In this document: piece by piece, positions 2,091 to 45,424 of the stretch
Position numbering within the stretch: position 1 is the stretch's first letter
Layout of the letters: every line of letters begins with the position of its first letter
Program-made: the position numbers and the translations under genes
Assembly (NCBI GenBank): GCA_963808235.1
Contig: CAWEEQ010000004.1
Span: 1,472,001-1,536,000, forward strand
Length of the DNA: 64,000 nucleotides
Source: an uncultured delta proteobacterium
GTDB taxonomy: Bacteria > Desulfobacterota > Binatia > Binatales > Binataceae
Direction of reading: 5' to 3'
The notes under the pieces: generated by a model
Database searches by the model: none
Seen by the model: only the letters and a program-made list of their open reading frames with translations
Told to the model about the DNA's origin: nothing

Positions 2091-3320
2091 ATGCCGGTTT
2101 TTGCTTATCGAGGACTCGATGCCGGCGGACGCGCCGTCAAGGGCGTAGTCGACGCCGATAGCGCGCGCACCGCACGCGCCAAGCTGCGCGCGTCGGGATT
2201 TTTTCCCACCGACCTGAACGAAGAGTCGAACGCCGCCGAACGAGAAGTGGCCAGGAAAGAATGGTTGCCGTCGTTGTGGCGGCGCAAGATGCCGGCCTCG
2301 GATCTCGCGCTGATGACCCGGCAGTTAAGCGCGCTGCTGGGCGCAGGCGTGCAGCTGGTCGAGGCGCTCGGCGCGCTCAGCGATCAGTCCGCGCGCGCGC
2401 AGACCAAGAAGATGCTCTCCCAGGTGCGCGAGCGGGTCCGCGAGGGATCGTCGCTTGCCGACGCGCTCACCGCTCATCGCGACATCTTCTCCGATCTTTA
2501 CATCGGGATGGTCCGCGCGGGCGAGCAGGCAGCCGCCCTTGAAGCGGTGCTCGATCGCCTTGCCGAGTACAGCGAGCGCCAAGCTGAATTTACCACCAAG
2601 GTCCGCGGCGCTCTGACCTATCCGATCATCATGATGTGCGTCGGCACCGGAATCATGGCGTTCCTGGTCGCTTACGTAGTTCCGCAGGTCGCGACTATTT
2701 TCGAGCAACAGCATGCGGCGCTTCCACTCGCGACCAGAATCCTGCTCACGTTTTCCGCGCTGGTCACCACCTACTGGCTGCCGATGGGCCTGTTGCTGGT
2801 CGCGATGGTTGCGGGATTCACCGGCGCGATGGCGACTCCGCGCGGCCGGCGCATCTATGACACCGCGATTCTCAAGGTGTACTACATCGGTCCAACCATC
2901 ATTCGAATTATCTGCGCGCGATTCGCGCGCACGCTCGCCACGCTGCTCTCGAGCGGCGTTCAGCTTCTCCCGGCGCTCGACGCGGTCAAGGGCGTGGTGA
3001 CCAACGGGCTGATGAAGGACGCCGTCGAAGAGAGCCGCGAAAGTATCCGCGAGGGCCATGGCATGGGCGACACCCTGTCGAAGAGCGGGCTCTTTCCGCC
3101 GCTCCTTATCGCGATGATCAAGGTTGGCGAGCGCTCCGGCGATCTCGAGCGGATGCTCGAGCGGGTTGCCGACAACTATGAGCATGAAGTTGCGCACTCG
3201 CTAAGCCAGATGACCACCGTGCTCGAACCCTTGATGACGCTGGCGATGGCCGCTGTTATCGTGTTCATGATGCTGGCGGTGTTGATGCCAATCTTCCAGT
3301 TGAACCAGTTGATGCAGTGA
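2091..3320 (+). CDS. gspF: Type II secretion inner-membrane platform protein GspF
   Basis: MPVFAYRGLD start, two T2SSF repeats (RAGEQAAALE, GERSGDLE), TVLEP…MPIF end. Confidence 0.95.
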   Translation: MPVFAYRGLDAGGRAVKGVVDADSARTARAKLRASGFFPTDLNEESNAAEREVARKEWLPSLWRRKMPASDLALMTRQLSALLGAGVQLVEALGALSDQSARAQTKKMLSQVRERVREGSSLADALTAHRDIFSDLYIGMVRAGEQAAALEAVLDRLAEYSERQAEFTTKVRGALTYPIIMMCVGTGIMAFLVAYVVPQVATIFEQQHAALPLATRILLTFSALVTTYWLPMGLLLVAMVAGFTGAMATPRGRRIYDTAILKVYYIGPTIIRIICARFARTLATLLSSGVQLLPALDAVKGVVTNGLMKDAVEESRESIREGHGMGDTLSKSGLFPPLLIAMIKVGERSGDLERMLERVADNYEHEVAHSLSQMTTVLEPLMTLAMAAVIVFMMLAVLMPIFQLNQLMQ

Positions 3321-3323
3321 ACC

Positions 3324-3350
3324 GTGAAAAGTGAAAAGTGAAAAGTAAAA
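3324..3350 (+). repeat. Short tandem heptamer repeat (GTGAAAA)x3 plus a degenerate copy
   Basis: gtgaaaa gtgaaaa gtgaaaa gtaaaa in the gspF-gspG spacer; more GTGAA/ATGAAAA variants continue to about 3383. Confidence 0.8.
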
Positions 3351-3402
3351 TTTGAAGAAGTGAAGGCGTGAAAAAATGAAAAATGTGCGGGAGGAAACCG
3401 CG

Positions 3403-3822
3403 ATGAAATCGCGCCGATACAATCAGGATGGCTTCACCCTGATTGAAATCATGGTGGTCATCCTTATCCTTGGCCTGCTCGCTACCATCGTCGTCCAGAG
3501 CTTGCGCGGCGCCGCCGACAAGGCGAAAAAGACCAAGGCACAGGCCGACCTCGCCGAGATCAAAACCGCGCTCGACCGCTACTACCTCGACAACGGCTAC
3601 TACCCATCCACCGATCAAGGTCTCAACGCGCTGGTCTCTCCGCCGACCAACGGCCGCATCCCGGCCAACTATGAAAGCGGCGGGTACATCGAGCGCCTTC
3701 CGCAAGACCCGTGGGGAACTGCCTACTTCTACCAGAGCGACGGTAACGCCTACGTGCTGAAGTCGTTCGGTCCGGACGGAGTCGAGAGCAGTGACGATAT
3801 AGATGCGAGCCAGTCGTCTTGA
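3403..3822 (+). CDS. gspG: Major pseudopilin GspG
   Basis: G|FTLIEIMVV N-methylation motif, YYLDNGYYPSTDQGLNALV, PQDPWG; RBS GGAGGA before ATG 3403. Confidence 0.95.
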   Translation: MKSRRYNQDGFTLIEIMVVILILGLLATIVVQSLRGAADKAKKTKAQADLAEIKTALDRYYLDNGYYPSTDQGLNALVSPPTNGRIPANYESGGYIERLPQDPWGTAYFYQSDGNAYVLKSFGPDGVESSDDIDASQSS

Positions 3823-3829
3823 CCGTGAA

Positions 3830-4420
3830 ATGAACTTTCGGCCCGCGCAGCCACGACCCGGCGCAGGACCGAGTGCGCGCGCGTCGGGTCAGGGCACCCG
3901 CTCGTTCTCGAAACTCGCGGCGCCGGGCTTCACTCTGCTCGAACTTGCGATCGTGATCTTCATCATGGGCCTGATGCTGACCCTGACGATGCCCTACCTG
4001 GGCGGCTTCCGCCACGCGCAGCTTCGCAGCGAGGCGCGCCGCCTCGCCGGCCGCGCGACCTTCATGTTCGACGAGGCCGCCGGCCACAAGCTCGTGTTGC
4101 GGCTCATCTTCGATCTCGACAACAACGGCTACGCAGTCGCGCGACTCGATCCCTATGCGGTCCAGCCGGTCTTCGCCGCCGATACCACTCCGTCCTCGCG
4201 CCCAATCATGTTGCCCTCCACGATTCGCATCCGCGATATCACCGTGGAAGGTATCGGCACTGTCAATCGCGGCGTCGTTGCCTGCAATTTTTATCCGGAG
4301 GGATACGTGGACGCGACCGTGGTGCATCTCGAAGACGCGTCGGGCGACGTGATGACGCTCAGCTTCACGCCGCTGACCGGCCAGGTCGCGATAGTCGACG
4401 GCGACGTGGGAATCCCGTGA
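3830..4420 (+). CDS. gspH: Minor pseudopilin GspH
   Basis: G|FTLLELAIV prepilin motif, FYPEG motif, operon position. Confidence 0.85.
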   Translation: MNFRPAQPRPGAGPSARASGQGTRSFSKLAAPGFTLLELAIVIFIMGLMLTLTMPYLGGFRHAQLRSEARRLAGRATFMFDEAAGHKLVLRLIFDLDNNGYAVARLDPYAVQPVFAADTTPSSRPIMLPSTIRIRDITVEGIGTVNRGVVACNFYPEGYVDATVVHLEDASGDVMTLSFTPLTGQVAIVDGDVGIP

Positions 4421-4863
4421 TAGCTGCTACCATGAACAGATCGATGAACATCGTCAGCAAACGCGCCCGTGGCTTCACCCTGCTTGAAGTGATGATCGCG
4501 ATCGCGATCCTCGGAACCGCACTCGCCGGCCTGCTCGGACTGCATCATCAGAGTCTGCAATCGGTCATTCGGTCGCAGGATATGACCCGGGCCTCGATGC
4601 TCGCGCAGGCGGTGATGACCGAGGCGGAGCTCGAGCGTTTTCCGGACCCCGGAACTACCACCGGCGATTTCCAGGCGTCGTTCCCGGGCCAGTTCCGGGA
4701 TTTTCAATGGCAACGAGTAGTCGAAGTCTCGGCTAACTTCCCCGACGTGCGCGAAGTCAAAGTGATGGTTCGCTACGGCCCGAAACTGAGCGGCTCCTTC
4801 GTGCTGGTCGAGTTTCTGCACTCGCCGATTCCACCCGATGAGAACTCAGGCCAGATCCCATGA
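4417..4863 (+). CDS. gspI: Minor pseudopilin GspI
   Basis: G|FTLLEVMIA motif; GTGA overlap with the gspH stop. Confidence 0.85.
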   Translation: MIAATMNRSMNIVSKRARGFTLLEVMIAIAILGTALAGLLGLHHQSLQSVIRSQDMTRASMLAQAVMTEAELERFPDPGTTTGDFQASFPGQFRDFQWQRVVEVSANFPDVREVKVMVRYGPKLSGSFVLVEFLHSPIPPDENSGQIP

Positions 4864-5555
4864 CGAGTCGAAGAAATTCCTACGCCTCTCCCCTCGCTAC
4901 AGATCGGCGCATATCCACACTCGCTCGCGGCTTCACCCTGATCGAAATGATGCTCGCGATTGGCGTGCTCGCCCTTATTCTCGCGATGCTCGCGAGCTCG
5001 TTCAGCGCGGTGGCGCATAGCAAAGTACATGGCGAAGGACGCCTGCTCGTCGATCGCGAAGGCCGCGCACTGCTGTGGCAGATGAGCAGGGAAATCCGCA
5101 ACGCCGTGCAGACGCCGGTCTCGCCCAGTCACGTCATTCTGATCGGTGGCGGACATGCCGGGAGCAACGGCCCAATCGATTCGATCACCATGTCCACCCT
5201 CGACGCGGGGCATCGCCGGGCGCTGACCGGGCTCGCGCCGGAATTTATTGTCACCTACAACATTGTGTCGAATCCCGACCAGCACGGATGGTACCTCCTC
5301 CAGCGCTCCCAACAGAGCGGCTTGATGGCCGGCGGCGCAGGCCAGGCTACGGTACTGGCCGACAACCTGCTCTCGATGCATCTGCGCTACTTCGACGGCG
5401 ACCGCTGGTCCGAGACTTGGGATTCGACCAGTGCGCAACCGGGACGCCAATTGCCGGTGGCGGTGGCTATTCAGATTCAGATGGCGGCGCCGGGCGGCCA
5501 CGCAATGGACTTCGCGACCCAAGTCACAGTGCCGATGGCGATAGCACAGTGGTAA
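4860..5555 (+). CDS. gspJ: Minor pseudopilin GspJ
   Basis: G|FTLIEMMLA motif, C-terminal YFDGDRWSETWD…LPVAV. Confidence 0.85.
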   Translation: MTSRRNSYASPLATDRRISTLARGFTLIEMMLAIGVLALILAMLASSFSAVAHSKVHGEGRLLVDREGRALLWQMSREIRNAVQTPVSPSHVILIGGGHAGSNGPIDSITMSTLDAGHRRALTGLAPEFIVTYNIVSNPDQHGWYLLQRSQQSGLMAGGAGQATVLADNLLSMHLRYFDGDRWSETWDSTSAQPGRQLPVAVAIQIQMAAPGGHAMDFATQVTVPMAIAQW

Positions 5556-39899: not shown

Positions 39900-40721
39900 T
39901 CAGTTTGAAAGCGCAACCAATTCCTCAACACTCCAAACATGATCAGAGATACCGGCTTCCATCGCTGGCGTGCAACGGATGGTCTGGCAGATTCGCGCGA
40001 AATTGTAGTGCATGAAGTGGAGCGCGACCGCATGCCGATGATTCTGAATCTTCTTGCTGTGACCAGCGCTCAAGCGGGTAAATCGGCGTATGCTCTGGCG
40101 CATCGTCTGGTTGTGCTTTTCGACAAATGACGTGGAAATGAAGTCTGGATCGGGCGAGCCGATGCGCGTGTCTTTACGGATGCCGATGCATTTGGGCGGG
40201 CTGTATCGATGCTCGCTATCTTCTTCGCCGTACAGCTTGACCAGCATCGCGTAATCAACATCGCGTCCAAACGCTTCCTCGACCGCGCGAAAGTAAACGG
40301 CATGCCCGTCTGTGGTCAATTGAATCCGAGTCGCGATCCGGCTCGCTACGTCGTTCATAAAGCGCTCTCCGGCTGGCGCGTTACGTCGGCCAACGTGCCA
40401 CGCGACCATCAACTTTGAATCGGCATCAATCGCGGTCCAAGTCCACACGTCGCCGAAACCAAAGCGACCGCGAAATTCAGCCGGTACGTTCTTTTGCTTC
40501 GCGTAGCAGAACGCCCAAATTTCGTCGCACTGAACGCGATTGCAATTCAGATTGCGGACATGCTCGTTGTGATAGCTCTCACAAGCTTCGCCCAGATCGG
40601 CGAGCAGCTTGAGAACGGTATTCTTCGCGATGCCAGTGATCCGCGTGATCGCGTTGATGCCGTTGCCTTCAACCAGAAGCGAAACGATCTGCGCCCGTTG
40701 CCCAATGCTCATTCTGTTCAT
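39900..40721 (-). CDS. IS1-family-like DDE transposase
   Basis: N-terminal HTH, QCDEIW, WTWTAIDADSKL, TTDG, TSFVE, RRFTRL, YNFAR, TPAMEAG; the stop lies inside the left TIR. Confidence 0.9.
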   Translation of the reverse strand: MNRMSIGQRAQIVSLLVEGNGINAITRITGIAKNTVLKLLADLGEACESYHNEHVRNLNCNRVQCDEIWAFCYAKQKNVPAEFRGRFGFGDVWTWTAIDADSKLMVAWHVGRRNAPAGERFMNDVASRIATRIQLTTDGHAVYFRAVEEAFGRDVDYAMLVKLYGEEDSEHRYSPPKCIGIRKDTRIGSPDPDFISTSFVEKHNQTMRQSIRRFTRLSAGHSKKIQNHRHAVALHFMHYNFARICQTIRCTPAMEAGISDHVWSVEELVALSN

Positions 40722-40728
40722 ACTGAAC

Positions 40729-40757
40729 AACATACAAGAGCGCTCTCGCTATGTCAA
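40729..40757 (-). promoter_or_regulatory. Sigma70-like promoter of the transposase (probably leaderless mRNA)
   Basis: TTGACA (40757-40752), 17 bp, TATGTT (40734-40729); ATG 8 nt downstream; palindrome GAGCGCTC in the spacer. Confidence 0.65.
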
Positions 40758-40765
40758 GCGGAAAC

Positions 40766-40800
40766 AAAAAGCCCCGTGGCAATAGAGGCCCACGGGGCTT
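40766..40800 (-). terminator. Intrinsic terminator of the hicA-hicB-orf3 operon
   Basis: AAGCCCCGTGG…CCACGGGGCTT stem, followed by TTTTGTTT on the minus strand. Confidence 0.75.
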
Positions 40801-40820: not shown

Positions 40821-41075
40821 TTACTTCTGCGGGTTAACCTTCGCCGCGTCCAATGCCGACGGTCCTTCCTTATCTGCTTTCTGTAAGCCAATTCCCATAA
40901 TTGTAACGACCACCGCGGGAAGTGTTTCGCCACCGCCAGCAGGCGACGGCACCTGCATGTTACCCATCCCAATTTGAAATTGTGAGGTCCAAATGCCTTC
41001 GCGTAATCCTTGATGTCGGATTAGTATTTCGACCAACTCCTTGTGCGAAAAAACGAATTGTGTCGGTTCAGCCAC
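40821..41075 (-). CDS. Small hypothetical protein, third gene of the TA operon
   Basis: GGAGG RBS then GTG at 41075; overlaps the hicB stop by 8 nt; 84 aa (FSHKELVEILI…EGIW…LDAAKVNP). Confidence 0.7.
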   Translation of the reverse strand: MAEPTQFVFSHKELVEILIRHQGLREGIWTSQFQIGMGNMQVPSPAGGGETLPAVVVTIMGIGLQKADKEGPSALDAAKVNPQK

Positions 41076-41607
41076 GGGCACCTCCTATTGTTATTGTCTC
41101 TTTCGTTGGAGGTAGAGAAATAACGGCAGCCGCATTGGATGGCAAAAACCATGAGCCAGCTTGGCCCGTAAATGGCGTGATGTAGATAAAATTGGCTTGA
41201 ATGAAATTCATTTCTATTCGATGAGCTATTCGCTCAAACAAATTATCCGCCCCAACCCAAGCCGAAATTGCGGATACAAAACAAGAATTGAGACTGATAC
41301 CATCGCGCTCGGCCTTGATCGCTGCCATGCGATGCACATCTCGCGGCAATCTGAGCGCGAACTTTCCGCTATAGCTGTGATCCGTGGTCGGAGGCGGAAT
41401 CGGCTCGCCATCGCTCAGTGTGCCTTCGATCCATGTAGCTGCAACCTCCTCCAGCTGATGATAAGCCTCGCCCGCTGTTTCGCCCTCAGCAAAGCATCCC
41501 GGAAATTCGAGAATCTCCGCAAAAAACCCGCCTTCCTCAGCGGGAACGAGAACCCTATGATAGGGAAGTTTCAGATAGTCGCTAATTGATTTTTTTTGAA
41601 TGTCCAT
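41068..41607 (-). CDS. hicB: HicB-family antitoxin with a C-terminal extension
   Basis: EILEFPGCFAEGET…GEPIPPP…YSGKFALRLPRDVH…GISLN (RHH), then about 55 extra residues. Confidence 0.88.
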   Translation of the reverse strand: MDIQKKSISDYLKLPYHRVLVPAEEGGFFAEILEFPGCFAEGETAGEAYHQLEEVAATWIEGTLSDGEPIPPPTTDHSYSGKFALRLPRDVHRMAAIKAERDGISLNSCFVSAISAWVGADNLFERIAHRIEMNFIQANFIYITPFTGQAGSWFLPSNAAAVISLPPTKETITIGGARG

Positions 41608-41890
41608 TTTGTTTGGCAATTGCTTGTTTCTCGGCCATTTCTATCGCGGCCAGATCGCCATCTAGGATCGCTAGGATCGCCTCCTTCGTTCGCCTCTTGA
41701 TTGGGGCTGAGTGATGCGGGATCGGTACTCTGGGACGGCCCTTCATCGCATACATCGGGTGATGTCCCTTTCCATCTAGTTTGCGACCAATCGCTTCCGC
41801 CAGAGATCTCAGTTCTTTGCTAGGCACTTGCCCTTGCCCTCGAAGTTCCTCCAGCCGCCGCCGCAACTCCTCTATTTTCTTGAGGGTCAT
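41582..41890 (-). CDS. hicA: HicA-like mRNA interferase toxin
   Basis: GKGHHPMY (G-x-H motif) and VPIPHH; basic, 102 aa; directly upstream of hicB. Confidence 0.7.
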   Translation of the reverse strand: MTLKKIEELRRRLEELRGQGQVPSKELRSLAEAIGRKLDGKGHHPMYAMKGRPRVPIPHHSAPIKRRTKEAILAILDGDLAAIEMAEKQAIAKQNGHSKKIN

Positions 41891-41934
41891 GATATCATGG
41901 GCGATATCATAGGTCGCTGCTTGGCTGGTGTCAA
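41889..41934 (-). promoter_or_regulatory. hicAB promoter with an overlapping palindromic operator
   Basis: TTGACA (41934-41929), 17 bp, TATGAT (41911-41906); inverted repeat ATGATATC-N6-GATATCAT (41889-41910). Confidence 0.75.
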
Positions 41935-42176
41935 GACTTCGAAGACTTCCATCTAGCGCGGGCCGCTTTACGAGCTAATTCTTTGCGCTTTTTTGCTGGT
42001 ACGCCCTTCCATCGCGCCTTTCCGCCCTTGAGACCGCCCTTGCGCCCCAGAGCGACCGCAGCAGGGTCTTTCCCATCGTCGGGCTTCTGCGCCTCTACAT
42101 CTTCGCCAATGGCCATCTGTAGAACTTTGTGCGCCAATTGGTTAGTGTCGCGGGGCATGCGAGAGCGCTTCTGCAT
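41931..42176 (-). CDS. Small basic IS-associated protein
   Basis: PRDTNQLA…KDPAAVALGRKGGLKGGKAR…RKELARKAARARW; I recall this type accompanying such IS1-like elements. Confidence 0.75.
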   Translation of the reverse strand: MQKRSRMPRDTNQLAHKVLQMAIGEDVEAQKPDDGKDPAAVALGRKGGLKGGKARWKGVPAKKRKELARKAARARWKSSKS

Positions 42177-43088: not shown

Positions 43089-45032
43089 CTATTTTGCTGA
43101 GGGTTCGTTCAGCAGAGCTTCAAGGACCTTGCCCGTAATCGGCTTTGGCACCAGCCGATCGAAACCTGCCTGCTTCGCATCGGCGTGATCCTTGGGTTGG
43201 CTGTACCCAGAAAGCGCGATTAGACGAGTGTCGCGTAGTCCCGGTTCTGCCCGTAGAGCGCGGGCTACCGCATAACCATCCATACCGCCTGGCAGTCCGA
43301 GATCGCAGATGACCAGGTCCGGCGCCTTCGCTATCGCGCAAACCAACGCCGATCGCCCATCGTATGCGGCATCGACATCGAAACCGATTTGGTCGATAAG
43401 CTCGGATAAGCCATCGGCTACATCCCTGTTGTCTTCGATGAGCAAAACGCGCCTGCGGTCCTTCCGCTGCGGTTGCTCAGCTGGAGGAGCGGCGGAAGTT
43501 GTCGCCGATGGTGCCGTGAGTGGCAACGTCAGCATAAACACCGCCCCGCGTCCCGGACCCGGGCTTTCGCCCGACAGCGAGCCGCCCTGCAGCTCGGCAA
43601 GTTTTCTGCTGATCGCCAGGCCAAGTCCGAGTCCTCCGTTGAACCGATCGATCTGTTGTTCTTGCTGAATAAACGGTTCGAACAGTCTGTCCGCCAGGGC
43701 GCCGTCAAAGCCGACCCCAGTGTCCTCGATCCGAACAACAGCCGAGCGCCCTTCGGCCCGGAGCCGTACCGTTACACGTCCCCGCACGGGTGTGAACTTG
43801 ACCGCGTTGGAAAGAACATTGTCGATGATCTGCCGCAGCCGGACGCGGTCGCCTCTCACCGGACACCGCGCATTAGAAATCTCGAATTCGAAGCCGATAC
43901 CAGCAGCGCTGACGCGCTCCTTGTTCTCTCCGACAATCTCGCGAAGGAGATCGCCGAGATCAATATCCTCGAATCGTATAGACGTTTTTCCGGAGGCGAT
44001 GCGAGCGGTGTCGAGCAAGTCGTCCAGCATGCGCGCCATAACCATGGATTGTCGGTCCAGCCGCTCGTGGAGACGCTCAACCTTCGGGTACTCCAGCGTC
44101 ATCCGACCCAGGGCATCGGCCGCCGCGCGGATCGCGGTCAGCGGATTACGCAGCTCGTGCGCCAGGATCGCAATGAACTGGTCCTTCTGCCGGTCCTTCT
44201 CCTCGAGTGCGTCTTTTGCGTTTCGCAGCTCCTCTCGCTCGTTCAGCTCGCGCAGCGCCGTTAGCTCGTCGAACATCCTCGCGCGCATTTCGCAACGGTC
44301 AGCTTCTGGATCGTCCATCAAGAGTTGGGCGAGCTCCGCATGATCCCGCATAAGGACCCGCATATCCTCCTCGGTCTCTATCTCCGGATGGAGCATTGTC
44401 CAGTAGTGGGCCGTCCGGATGAAAGCGAGGAGACCGCTCAAGTACTCGAAATTGCGCGGCCCCAGAGCCTTTAGAAGTGCGAGCCGCGCCTCCTCGCCGC
44501 GAGCGGGTTCACTGAAGACCACGGCGGCGCAGGCGAAAATAAAGTCTTCCATCTCCGTTCGGGGTTCAGGCCAGTTGGCCAATGGTGTTTTCAATCCCTG
44601 AAGACGCGCATAGACCTCACCCATGTCGCGGTTCCATGGCGTCGGGCGTTTCAGGAGCTGGACTACCTCAGCAACGCTCTGCGCGGGAGCGTCCGCATCG
44701 CCTGCCGGCCGGCCGTGGCCGAGCAGAAAGCCGACGTGGCGCACGATGCAATAGCGGACGGGGCACAGCCGCGAGAGCATCACAAACAAGCGTTCTTTGA
44801 ATAGAGCGGGAATGGGATTGTCGAGATAACCGGCCCTCGCGAAGGACCATAGCCTCTCGATTAATTCTGGTGCTGCGCGGGCCGAACGAAAAAAATTGGG
44901 AAGGATGCCGAAGCGCCCCGTCACTTCGGTGTCGAACGCCGTGCGGGGATCATCAGATAATTGATCCATCGGTCTCTCTTCGGAATCCTGAGAGTAATCT
45001 ACGTCCGCCGGCTTTTCCAATCGCCTTTTCAT
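43089..45032 (-). CDS. Hybrid histidine kinase/receiver with an N-terminal AhpD-like domain
   Basis: RFGILPNFF…KERLFV…CPVRYCIVRH; AHELRNPL H-box; NAVKF, DTGVG, GLGLGL; C-terminal receiver (DLGLPG…K). ATGA overlap with the upstream RR. Confidence 0.88.
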   Translation of the reverse strand: MKRRLEKPADVDYSQDSEERPMDQLSDDPRTAFDTEVTGRFGILPNFFRSARAAPELIERLWSFARAGYLDNPIPALFKERLFVMLSRLCPVRYCIVRHVGFLLGHGRPAGDADAPAQSVAEVVQLLKRPTPWNRDMGEVYARLQGLKTPLANWPEPRTEMEDFIFACAAVVFSEPARGEEARLALLKALGPRNFEYLSGLLAFIRTAHYWTMLHPEIETEEDMRVLMRDHAELAQLLMDDPEADRCEMRARMFDELTALRELNEREELRNAKDALEEKDRQKDQFIAILAHELRNPLTAIRAAADALGRMTLEYPKVERLHERLDRQSMVMARMLDDLLDTARIASGKTSIRFEDIDLGDLLREIVGENKERVSAAGIGFEFEISNARCPVRGDRVRLRQIIDNVLSNAVKFTPVRGRVTVRLRAEGRSAVVRIEDTGVGFDGALADRLFEPFIQQEQQIDRFNGGLGLGLAISRKLAELQGGSLSGESPGPGRGAVFMLTLPLTAPSATTSAAPPAEQPQRKDRRRVLLIEDNRDVADGLSELIDQIGFDVDAAYDGRSALVCAIAKAPDLVICDLGLPGGMDGYAVARALRAEPGLRDTRLIALSGYSQPKDHADAKQAGFDRLVPKPITGKVLEALLNEPSAK

Positions 45033-45424
45033 CCGGACCCATCCATCAGCCGCGAGATTTCCTCCATCAGGTGTTCCGTCTTGAATGGTTTGCGCAGAAA
45101 CGCATCGTAGCCTTCGCATCGCTTCCTGATTGTCTGTTCGGATAGCGCGCTGGTCAGAATCACCGGAATCTCGCGGAATCGATCGTCGGCGCGCATCGCC
45201 TTCATAACGCCCGCGCCATCCAAAATCGGCATCATGAAATCGACGATAGCCAAAGCCGGAACGCTCTCTTCCAGCCTGGCCAACGCCTCCTGACCGTTGA
45301 GTGCGCTGATCACTTTGAAGCCCGCATCGCTCAAGATAAACCCGACTACTTCAAGAATCCCGAATTCGTCATCAACGATCAGTATCGTCTTTCCGGCCGA
45401 TCGGGCCTTTGAGCTCTTCGCCAT
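45029..45424 (-). CDS. Single-domain response regulator
   Basis: ILIVDDE, DFMMP, LTS, RKPF. Confidence 0.92.
   Translation of the reverse strand: MAKSSKARSAGKTILIVDDEFGILEVVGFILSDAGFKVISALNGQEALARLEESVPALAIVDFMMPILDGAGVMKAMRADDRFREIPVILTSALSEQTIRKRCEGYDAFLRKPFKTEHLMEEISRLMDGSG

Follow-up and report, generated by a model that had tools for sequence, protein, structure and literature searches.

To our knowledge, SecB-like chaperones define the sole well-described tripartite toxin-antitoxin-chaperone (TAC) architecture. A HicAB representative is known from Methylomonas methanica MC09 (HicA-HicB-SecB, hereafter the Mmet TAC), and the pairs formed by SecB and the chaperone addiction (ChAD) tail of the antitoxin are described, in the sections covered of the source, as modular and graftable between antitoxins, with ChAD tails that lack sequence similarity (Bordes 2016, PMC5105189). 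Recognition of the ChAD proceeds via aromatic patterns according to the sections covered of Mets 2024. The sections covered of Gerdes 2024 (PMC10865869) present 14 HicA contexts, all of them bicistronic or monocistronic, and its main text contains none of the terms 'third gene', 'three-gene', 'tricistronic' and 'SecB'; full-text literature searches returned no description of a third gene of the type reported below. Here we analyze hicA-hicB-orf3, a three-gene operon in a 64,000-nt stretch (the window, at positions 1,472,001 to 1,536,000 of contig CAWEEQ010000004.1, assembly GCA_963808235.1) of an uncultured delta proteobacterium affiliated with the Binataceae. With somewhat less than even confidence we propose that orf3 encodes a dedicated partner of the C-terminal HicB tail, gating the function of the antitoxin in the manner of a TAC, where both the binding and the dependence are what we infer.

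In the reading of the open reading frames (ORFs), the three overlapping genes are all located on the minus strand at 40821-41890 of the window, and their overlaps, promoter, palindrome and terminator make them a single three-gene unit. The genes and the signal that couples the last two are:

41582-41890, minus strand: hicA-like gene, 102 aa, divergent, recognized from Pfam, PHROG and Atlas evidence
41607 (ATG) to 41068 (stop), minus strand: hicB, 179 aa
41075 (GTG) to 40821 (stop), minus strand: orf3, 84 aa, belonging to a large unnamed family
41081-41086, minus strand: AGGAGG ribosome-binding site of orf3, within the HicB codons I-G-G and 5 nt before the GTG at 41075

The overlaps amount to 26 nt between hicA and hicB and 8 nt (GTGGCTGA) between hicB and orf3, in agreement with the original prediction, which had placed three overlapping genes at these positions. 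The GTG at 41075 was taken as the orf3 start because of the AGGAGG 5 nt upstream and because homologues begin with M-A-E. As this AGGAGG falls inside the I-G-G codons, close HicBs share an I-G-G-A-x-G end. The 3' end of hicB (41068-41086) thus doubles as the Shine-Dalgarno (SD) sequence and the start of orf3, and therefore the conservation of the C-terminal HicB residues and of the M-A-E start of orf3 is owed, at least in part, to constraints that translational coupling places on the nucleotides and not to protein function.

The closest comparison is the Mmet TAC, with which, as far as its source was covered, the locus shares the order of toxin, antitoxin and third gene, a HicB extension that begins near residue 119-120 (the ChAD of Mmet-HicB spans residues 119-159), and an aromatic-rich tail that varies in sequence by lineage and appears to act with its partner as a portable module. 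Unlike in the Mmet TAC, the third protein is 84 aa long without a SecB match or a SecB-like fold match, and the tail is longer (60 aa). An antitoxin extension past the functional domains, as known from TACs, is thus present (60 residues, conserved within the clade), but because a SecB-like third gene is lacking the locus is not a TAC member; by analogy, it is plausibly a functional counterpart of one. Class 4 RHH (ribbon-helix-helix) hicAB loci (Gerdes 2024) resemble it in having hicA upstream of and overlapping hicB, an N-terminal HicA-binding domain followed by a C-terminal RHH domain, and a promoter palindrome, and differ in that neither a third gene nor a HicB tail is described for them in the sections covered. 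HigBAC and CmdTAC of E. coli (Mets 2024, sections covered) are also tripartite, with a third protein that guards the antitoxin through aromatic motifs of its tail, a role that orf3 may play by analogy; unlike this locus they have other toxins, a SecB-like chaperone, and demonstrated phage triggering.

A word-indexed search with orf3 retrieved 26 homologues (83-94 aa, 41-90% identity), and an exhaustive search found 397 cluster representatives (clustered at 50% identity) at E ≤ 1e-3, of which 28 reached E ≤ 1e-10. Family members are 80-110 aa long and consist of a helix, an E-G-x-W motif, a long hairpin that contains P53 and G63, and a V-D-A-A-x-V-N-P end. Among 173 aligned members the signature comprises G27 (173), W29 (160), P53 (172), D76 (165), A77 (173), N81 (150), and P82 (143), and an M-[AP]-[ED] start was found in 105 of 172; against the family profile, the protein of the window reaches 120 bits. 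The AlphaFold (AF2) model, built with 27 sequences, predicts a helix followed by a long beta-hairpin and then a short strand plus helix, at a predicted local distance difference test score (pLDDT) of 87.9. In the single-chain fold of a natural fusion protein (P0157, see below) with a 150-sequence alignment of orf3 alone, the orf3 domain reached a pLDDT of 97-98, and the tail (68-118), for which there was no alignment depth, had a pLDDT below 50 and made no contact with it. The sequence had no match in Pfam, NCBIfam, PADLOC, PHROGs, or the PDB, and neither orf3 nor 27 family members matched SecB or any other Pfam family at E ≤ 1. Foldseek searches with two orf3-bearing models against the PDB gave best E-values of 0.53 and 0.33, none of the hits being SecB, and the orf3 model against BFVD gave a best E-value of 0.23; nothing was found at E ≤ 0.001 in either database. 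The claim that orf3 is not SecB was therefore borne out both at the level of Pfam and of fold matches. Long forms are rare, as 4 of the 150 listed family representatives exceed 150 aa. One long form, P0106 (637 aa), shows the domain in another setting, with two orf3-like copies in tandem at the C-terminus behind a large N-terminal region, which is without a Pfam match and carries an H-E-x-x-H-like string; the tandem arrangement hints that the domain may work in pairs.

Genome contigs were searched with 11 close orf3 sequences, and 33 candidate stretches were reduced to one locus (L001), from a metagenome-assembled genome (MAG) of Steroidobacteraceae, with the same three-gene order and an orf3 identity of 45%:

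3126-3425: hicA-like ORF, Pfam HicA E-value 0.005
3456-4001: tailed hicB, 181 aa
from 4001: orf3, with a TGATG overlap with hicB

About 70 nt past orf3, the same contig holds a 376-aa ORF (4319-5449) without a Pfam match. In Ca. Binatus soli, a HicB (P0210, on 86 contigs) and an orf3 homologue (P0298, an 86-aa 'hypothetical protein' on 89 contigs) have adjacent accessions. For 8 of the 26 orf3 matches the longest contig was identical in size to that of a tailed HicB match, which serves as a proxy for co-location. The gene overlap offers a further proxy, since with an 8-nt overlap and an M-A/P-E/D start of orf3, HicB can end only in the two residues [YHND or CRSG][G or A]. A profile search recovered 1187 HicB relatives at E ≤ 1e-10, of which the best 120 were examined together with P0029, a protein from a search with the tail alone. 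This end dipeptide was found in 43 of these 121 tailed HicBs, against 7.3 expected from the internal dipeptides of the same proteins (binomial p 4e-22), and as five of the eight contig-matched HicBs lack it, the dipeptide undercounts. Taken together, orf3 and the HicB tail recur in each other's company in distant lineages, down to 42-45% orf3 identity, and are sometimes fused. The original prediction had proposed to check whether orf3 homologues recur beside tailed antitoxins, and L001, the Binatus pair, the fusions, the 8 of 26 contig matches and the end dipeptide all answer this in the affirmative.

Fused forms come in several kinds. P0157 combines RHH domain, tail, and complete orf3 in a single chain, in P0300 (268 aa, 1 contig), a variant of the Ca. 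Binatus soli pair, a frame change in the tail lets HicB read on into orf3, and 3 of the 121 HicBs hold the C-terminal half of the orf3 domain within their tail (E 1.6e-10 to 1.5e-9; another at E 1e-3). In P0256, P0293, and P0297 (also P0271, P0280, P0291, P0292, and P0273; several of them judged by eye) the HicB tail consists of the last orf3 strand, the D-A-A-x-V-N-P motif, and a basic tail, soon after the RHH domain. On their sequences, tails of the P0256 type look like repeated in-frame deletions that keep the motif tethered to HicB, and the motif may, as they hint, be the working end of orf3. It is possible to read such fusions, the tight gene overlap with its translational coupling, and the tandem domains of P0106 with their hint of pairing as signs that tail and orf3 are the C-terminal domain of a longer antitoxin, usually split, in an otherwise ordinary two-partner toxin-antitoxin (TA) system where this domain would serve oligomerization or another role. 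We consider this decidedly unlikely, as the split form is the norm (89 contigs for P0298 and 86 for P0210 versus 1 contig for the fusion P0300), representatives longer than 150 aa are scarce, and no homology between tail and orf3 was detected. A related candidate, the HicB tail as a degenerate orf3 paralogue, was rejected after hhalign comparisons of a 10-sequence tail alignment with the 27- and 173-sequence orf3 alignments, which gave E-values of 0.87 and 0.52.

The HicB of the window is divided into three parts:

41377..41607, minus strand: N-terminal toxin-binding domain, residues 1-77, with matches to Pfam and, by profile, to solved HicBs
41251..41376, minus strand: RHH DNA-binding domain, approximately residues 78-119 (Pfam HicB, PF05534)
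41071..41250, minus strand: tail, residues 120-179, with a helix, an aromatic beta-prone stretch and a variable end, the last codons of which hold the orf3 SD

The tail extends 60 residues past the RHH domain. The Pfam HicB match extends to about residue 108, and matches to HicBs in the PDB, which are 138-148 aa long, end by profile position 119 (the position reached by the 6g1n alignment). With 7 F/W/Y among the 60 residues, the aromatic stretch that had been predicted is real, as is the extension itself, but its length is 60 and not approximately 55 residues. A search with HicB residues 118-179 alone returned 6 tailed HicBs, in which the helix and the aromatic strand are conserved, as is the stretch W-F-L-P-S-N-A-A-A-V-I. 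Tail length could be determined in 106 of the 121 HicB relatives (median 67 aa, range 20-148), the other 15 being outside the motif rule used for measuring. Long-tailed RHH HicBs thus form a sizeable clade, publicly annotated merely as HicB family antitoxin, and the proximal tail (helix plus aromatic strand) is conserved across its subclades. Since both the tail and orf3 are conserved, neither is a chance ORF.

We compared the divergence of the parts across 11 pairs of HicB and orf3, eight of them contig-matched and the other three from the window, L001, and Ca. Binatus soli. Identity of orf3 followed that of the tail (Spearman 0.82, Mantel p 2e-4), and still did so without the two most distant pairs (0.52, p 0.004) and when P0029 was removed as well (0.45, p 0.03), whereas it followed neither the HicB N-domain (-0.07) nor the RHH domain (0.15; both not significant), two domains that are correlated with each other (0.76). 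P0029 illustrates the pattern, being 42% identical to the window protein in the core and 58% in the tail, with an orf3 partner that is 82% identical. As orf3 tracks the tail and not the core, tail and orf3 appear to constitute one evolutionary cassette that is exchanged independently of the HicB core, in parallel to the ChAD/SecB module of TACs; co-variation confined to the tail is the pattern that would be expected of a tail-specific partner, and evolution in step with the tail suggests a new kind of antitoxin helper. That orf3 could instead be a passenger without functional tie to HicAB, and the tail a translated spacer, is highly improbable: adjacency alone could yield the co-variation, and the distal tail is poorly conserved, but the linkage persists down to the lowest orf3 identities given above with coupling overlaps and fusions conserved, and the proximal tail is maintained across subclades. 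The suggestion that orf3 may be a new chaperone or sensor for a tailed HicB is partly supported, in that a conserved non-SecB protein recurs beside tailed HicBs and co-varies with the tail (0.82); binding of the tail, a need of HicB for orf3, a chaperone or sensor role and phage defence are putative, and the locus is at most an analogue of the TACs.

If orf3 is a dedicated partner of the tail, the add-on to this type II, RHH-class hicA-hicB operon would consist of the 60-residue tail and the translationally coupled 84-aa orf3. The beta-prone, aromatic tail would be bound by the orf3 protein, probably through strand addition to the exposed hairpin of orf3, and this binding would control the solubility, stability, or activity of HicB, so that HicA would be held in check only while orf3 is available. 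HicB would repress the operon at the palindrome through its RHH domain, and freed HicA would cleave RNA. Such a logic would be that of the ChAD/SecB pair of TACs, arrived at from an unrelated fold. A fairly unlikely alternative is that orf3 is a repressor accessory and not a chaperone, docking at or near the HicB C-terminus, where the D-A-A-x-V-N-P motif and, in most relatives, a basic tail would tune operator or nucleic-acid binding or conditional cooperativity. A C-terminal tail with a net charge of at least +3 (median 13 aa, +4) is indeed present in 104 of 173 family members, and all that the natural deletion-fusions retain of orf3, right after the RHH domain and one helix, is the last strand with the motif and the basic tail; however, the window orf3 and its close relatives end 2-4 residues past the motif with a net charge of about +1 to +3, neither Foldseek nor Pfam detected a DNA-binding fold or family for orf3, and the co-variation of the long hydrophobic tail with orf3 would be left unexplained.

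The core of the system is better defined on the antitoxin side. The HicB N-domain scored above the cut-offs of HicB_lk_antitox (PF15919, 32.8 bits, cut-off 27) and UPF0150 (PF21748, 33 bits, cut-off 27.3), the RHH domain above that of PF05534 (E 4e-10, 39.9 bits, cut-off 21; a weak Arc-like match was obtained at E 0.006), and a profile of tailed HicBs matched the solved HicBs 6u0i, 6hpb, 6g1n, and 4p78 (E 2e-6 to 2e-3), which together make the identity of HicB secure. The hicA-like protein matched PHROG 353 'toxin' (E 7.5e-4), its nearest Atlas clusters are 101-107 aa long with HicA_toxin assigned to 12-16% of their members, and no match was obtained in the PDB sequence search. It shows two His-containing motifs, which we take to have a putative catalytic role, and is probably a divergent HicA toxin. 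The hicA-like ORF of L001 ends in a C-terminal aspartate run and is without the first of the two His positions aligned to the window protein. Of the features of RHH-class HicAB, the HicB N-domain, the RHH domain, hicA directly upstream in one operon, and the palindrome are present; by its antitoxin, and probably also by its toxin, the locus belongs to HicAB.

The signals that frame the operon are:

41906..41934, minus strand: sigma-70-like promoter TTGACA-17-TATGAT, 11/12 consensus matches
41889-41896 and 41903-41910, no strand assigned: candidate operator, perfect 8-nt inverted repeat ATGATATC-N6-GATATCAT, found by inverted-repeat search
40759..40800, minus strand: intrinsic terminator with an 11-bp G+C stem (40769-40800), a 10-nt loop, and a U-run

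The promoter is situated approximately 15 nt upstream of the hicA ATG, leaving a very short leader without an SD. Promoter-like sites in the region number 2, versus 1.5 ± 1.4 in shuffles, and their count alone is not significant. The inverted repeat extends over the -10 hexamer and the start codon of hicA, and the candidate operator (41889..41910) also holds a direct repeat (GATATCATGGG / GATATCATAGG); HicB may bind here by analogy with known RHH HicBs, as far as these are treated in the sections covered of Gerdes 2024 (PMC10865869). The terminator folds at -32.4 kcal/mol over 71 nt (z -5.4; 0 of 200 shuffles as good) and was missed by a consensus scan because of its 10-nt loop; the same scan placed 3 terminator-like sites inside hicB, within the shuffle expectation of 1.7 ± 1.3. 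The promoter with its palindromic operator and the single closing terminator named in the original prediction were thus both recovered, the former with 11/12 consensus matches and a perfect 8-nt inverted repeat, the latter by folding. Just upstream, an 81-aa, very basic ORF (41931-42176, minus strand) has its stop within the -35 hexamer that serves hicA; no match was obtained for this ORF in Pfam, NCBIfam, or PADLOC, and only a weak one to PHROG 2384 (E 3.8e-4).

With 51% G+C versus 60% for the window, the locus is part of a low-GC patch (approximately 39.6 to 43.2 kb, 49-55% G+C versus 60-65% in the flanks), which suggests an acquired stretch. Directly past the terminator is an IS1-family transposase ORF (39900-40733, minus strand; NCBIfam IS1 E 5.8e-19, below the cut-off, with weak DDE and helix-turn-helix Pfam matches; IS, insertion sequence), with a promoter-like site at 40757..40729. 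Further upstream of the operon, a 676-aa ORF (43089-45119, minus strand) resembles by eye a receiver-containing hybrid sensor histidine kinase. The low GC content of the locus and its position beside an IS, the rapid divergence of the tail-orf3 module and its apparent swapping between cores, and the phage-sensing role of the third protein in TACs (Mets 2024, sections covered) would all suit an orf3 that is a sensor or trigger, binding an invader or stress signal and thereby freeing HicA, or a second effector with a target of its own, where the tail merely tethers. We regard this as very unlikely, since such support is purely by analogy, no defence genes were seen nearby, orf3 has no PADLOC or PHROG match, and tblastn matched it neither in the phage nor in the plasmid collections (P0042 and P0034 were unmatched in plasmids as well).

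Several observations weigh against orf3 being a dedicated, gating partner of the tail. Tail and orf3 are adjacent DNA, so that recombination breaking after the RHH domain would move both without any physical interaction, and plain linkage could account for the Mantel result. In its distal part the tail diverges rapidly (identity 0.30-0.34 versus 0.62-0.72 for the HicB core) and may be a weakly constrained translated spacer. The linkage evidence consists of named loci and paired matches, not of the gene context of the wider family (397 clusters), and most HicB/orf3 pairs depend on the contig-size proxy, with 18 of the 26 orf3 matches unpaired. The long orf3 forms P0067, P0106, and P0128 have N-terminal parts that are not HicB. 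On the toxin side, the match of the hicA-like protein to Pfam HicA_toxin covers 52 of 58 profile positions but scores 21.2 bits (E 3.1e-4), where the cut-off is 27, and upstream of hicA in L001 neither a promoter-like site on the gene strand nor an inverted repeat was found. Finally, PADLOC returned no match among 5 local proteins, and no defence gene was seen beside the module.

A bolder form of the proposal, which we regard as doubtful, is that tail and orf3 are a second, independently invented addiction cassette, consisting of an aggregation-prone tail and a small guardian of a new fold, which would make the antitoxin conditional on its guardian, would occur widely among environmental bacteria (at least 397 clusters), and could serve as an invader-sensing input as SecB does in TACs. 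If orf3 does guard the tail, conditional, partner-guarded antitoxins would have arisen more than once, a large family of hypothetical proteins would gain a function, and protein stability could be controlled with a new, small pair of tail and partner.

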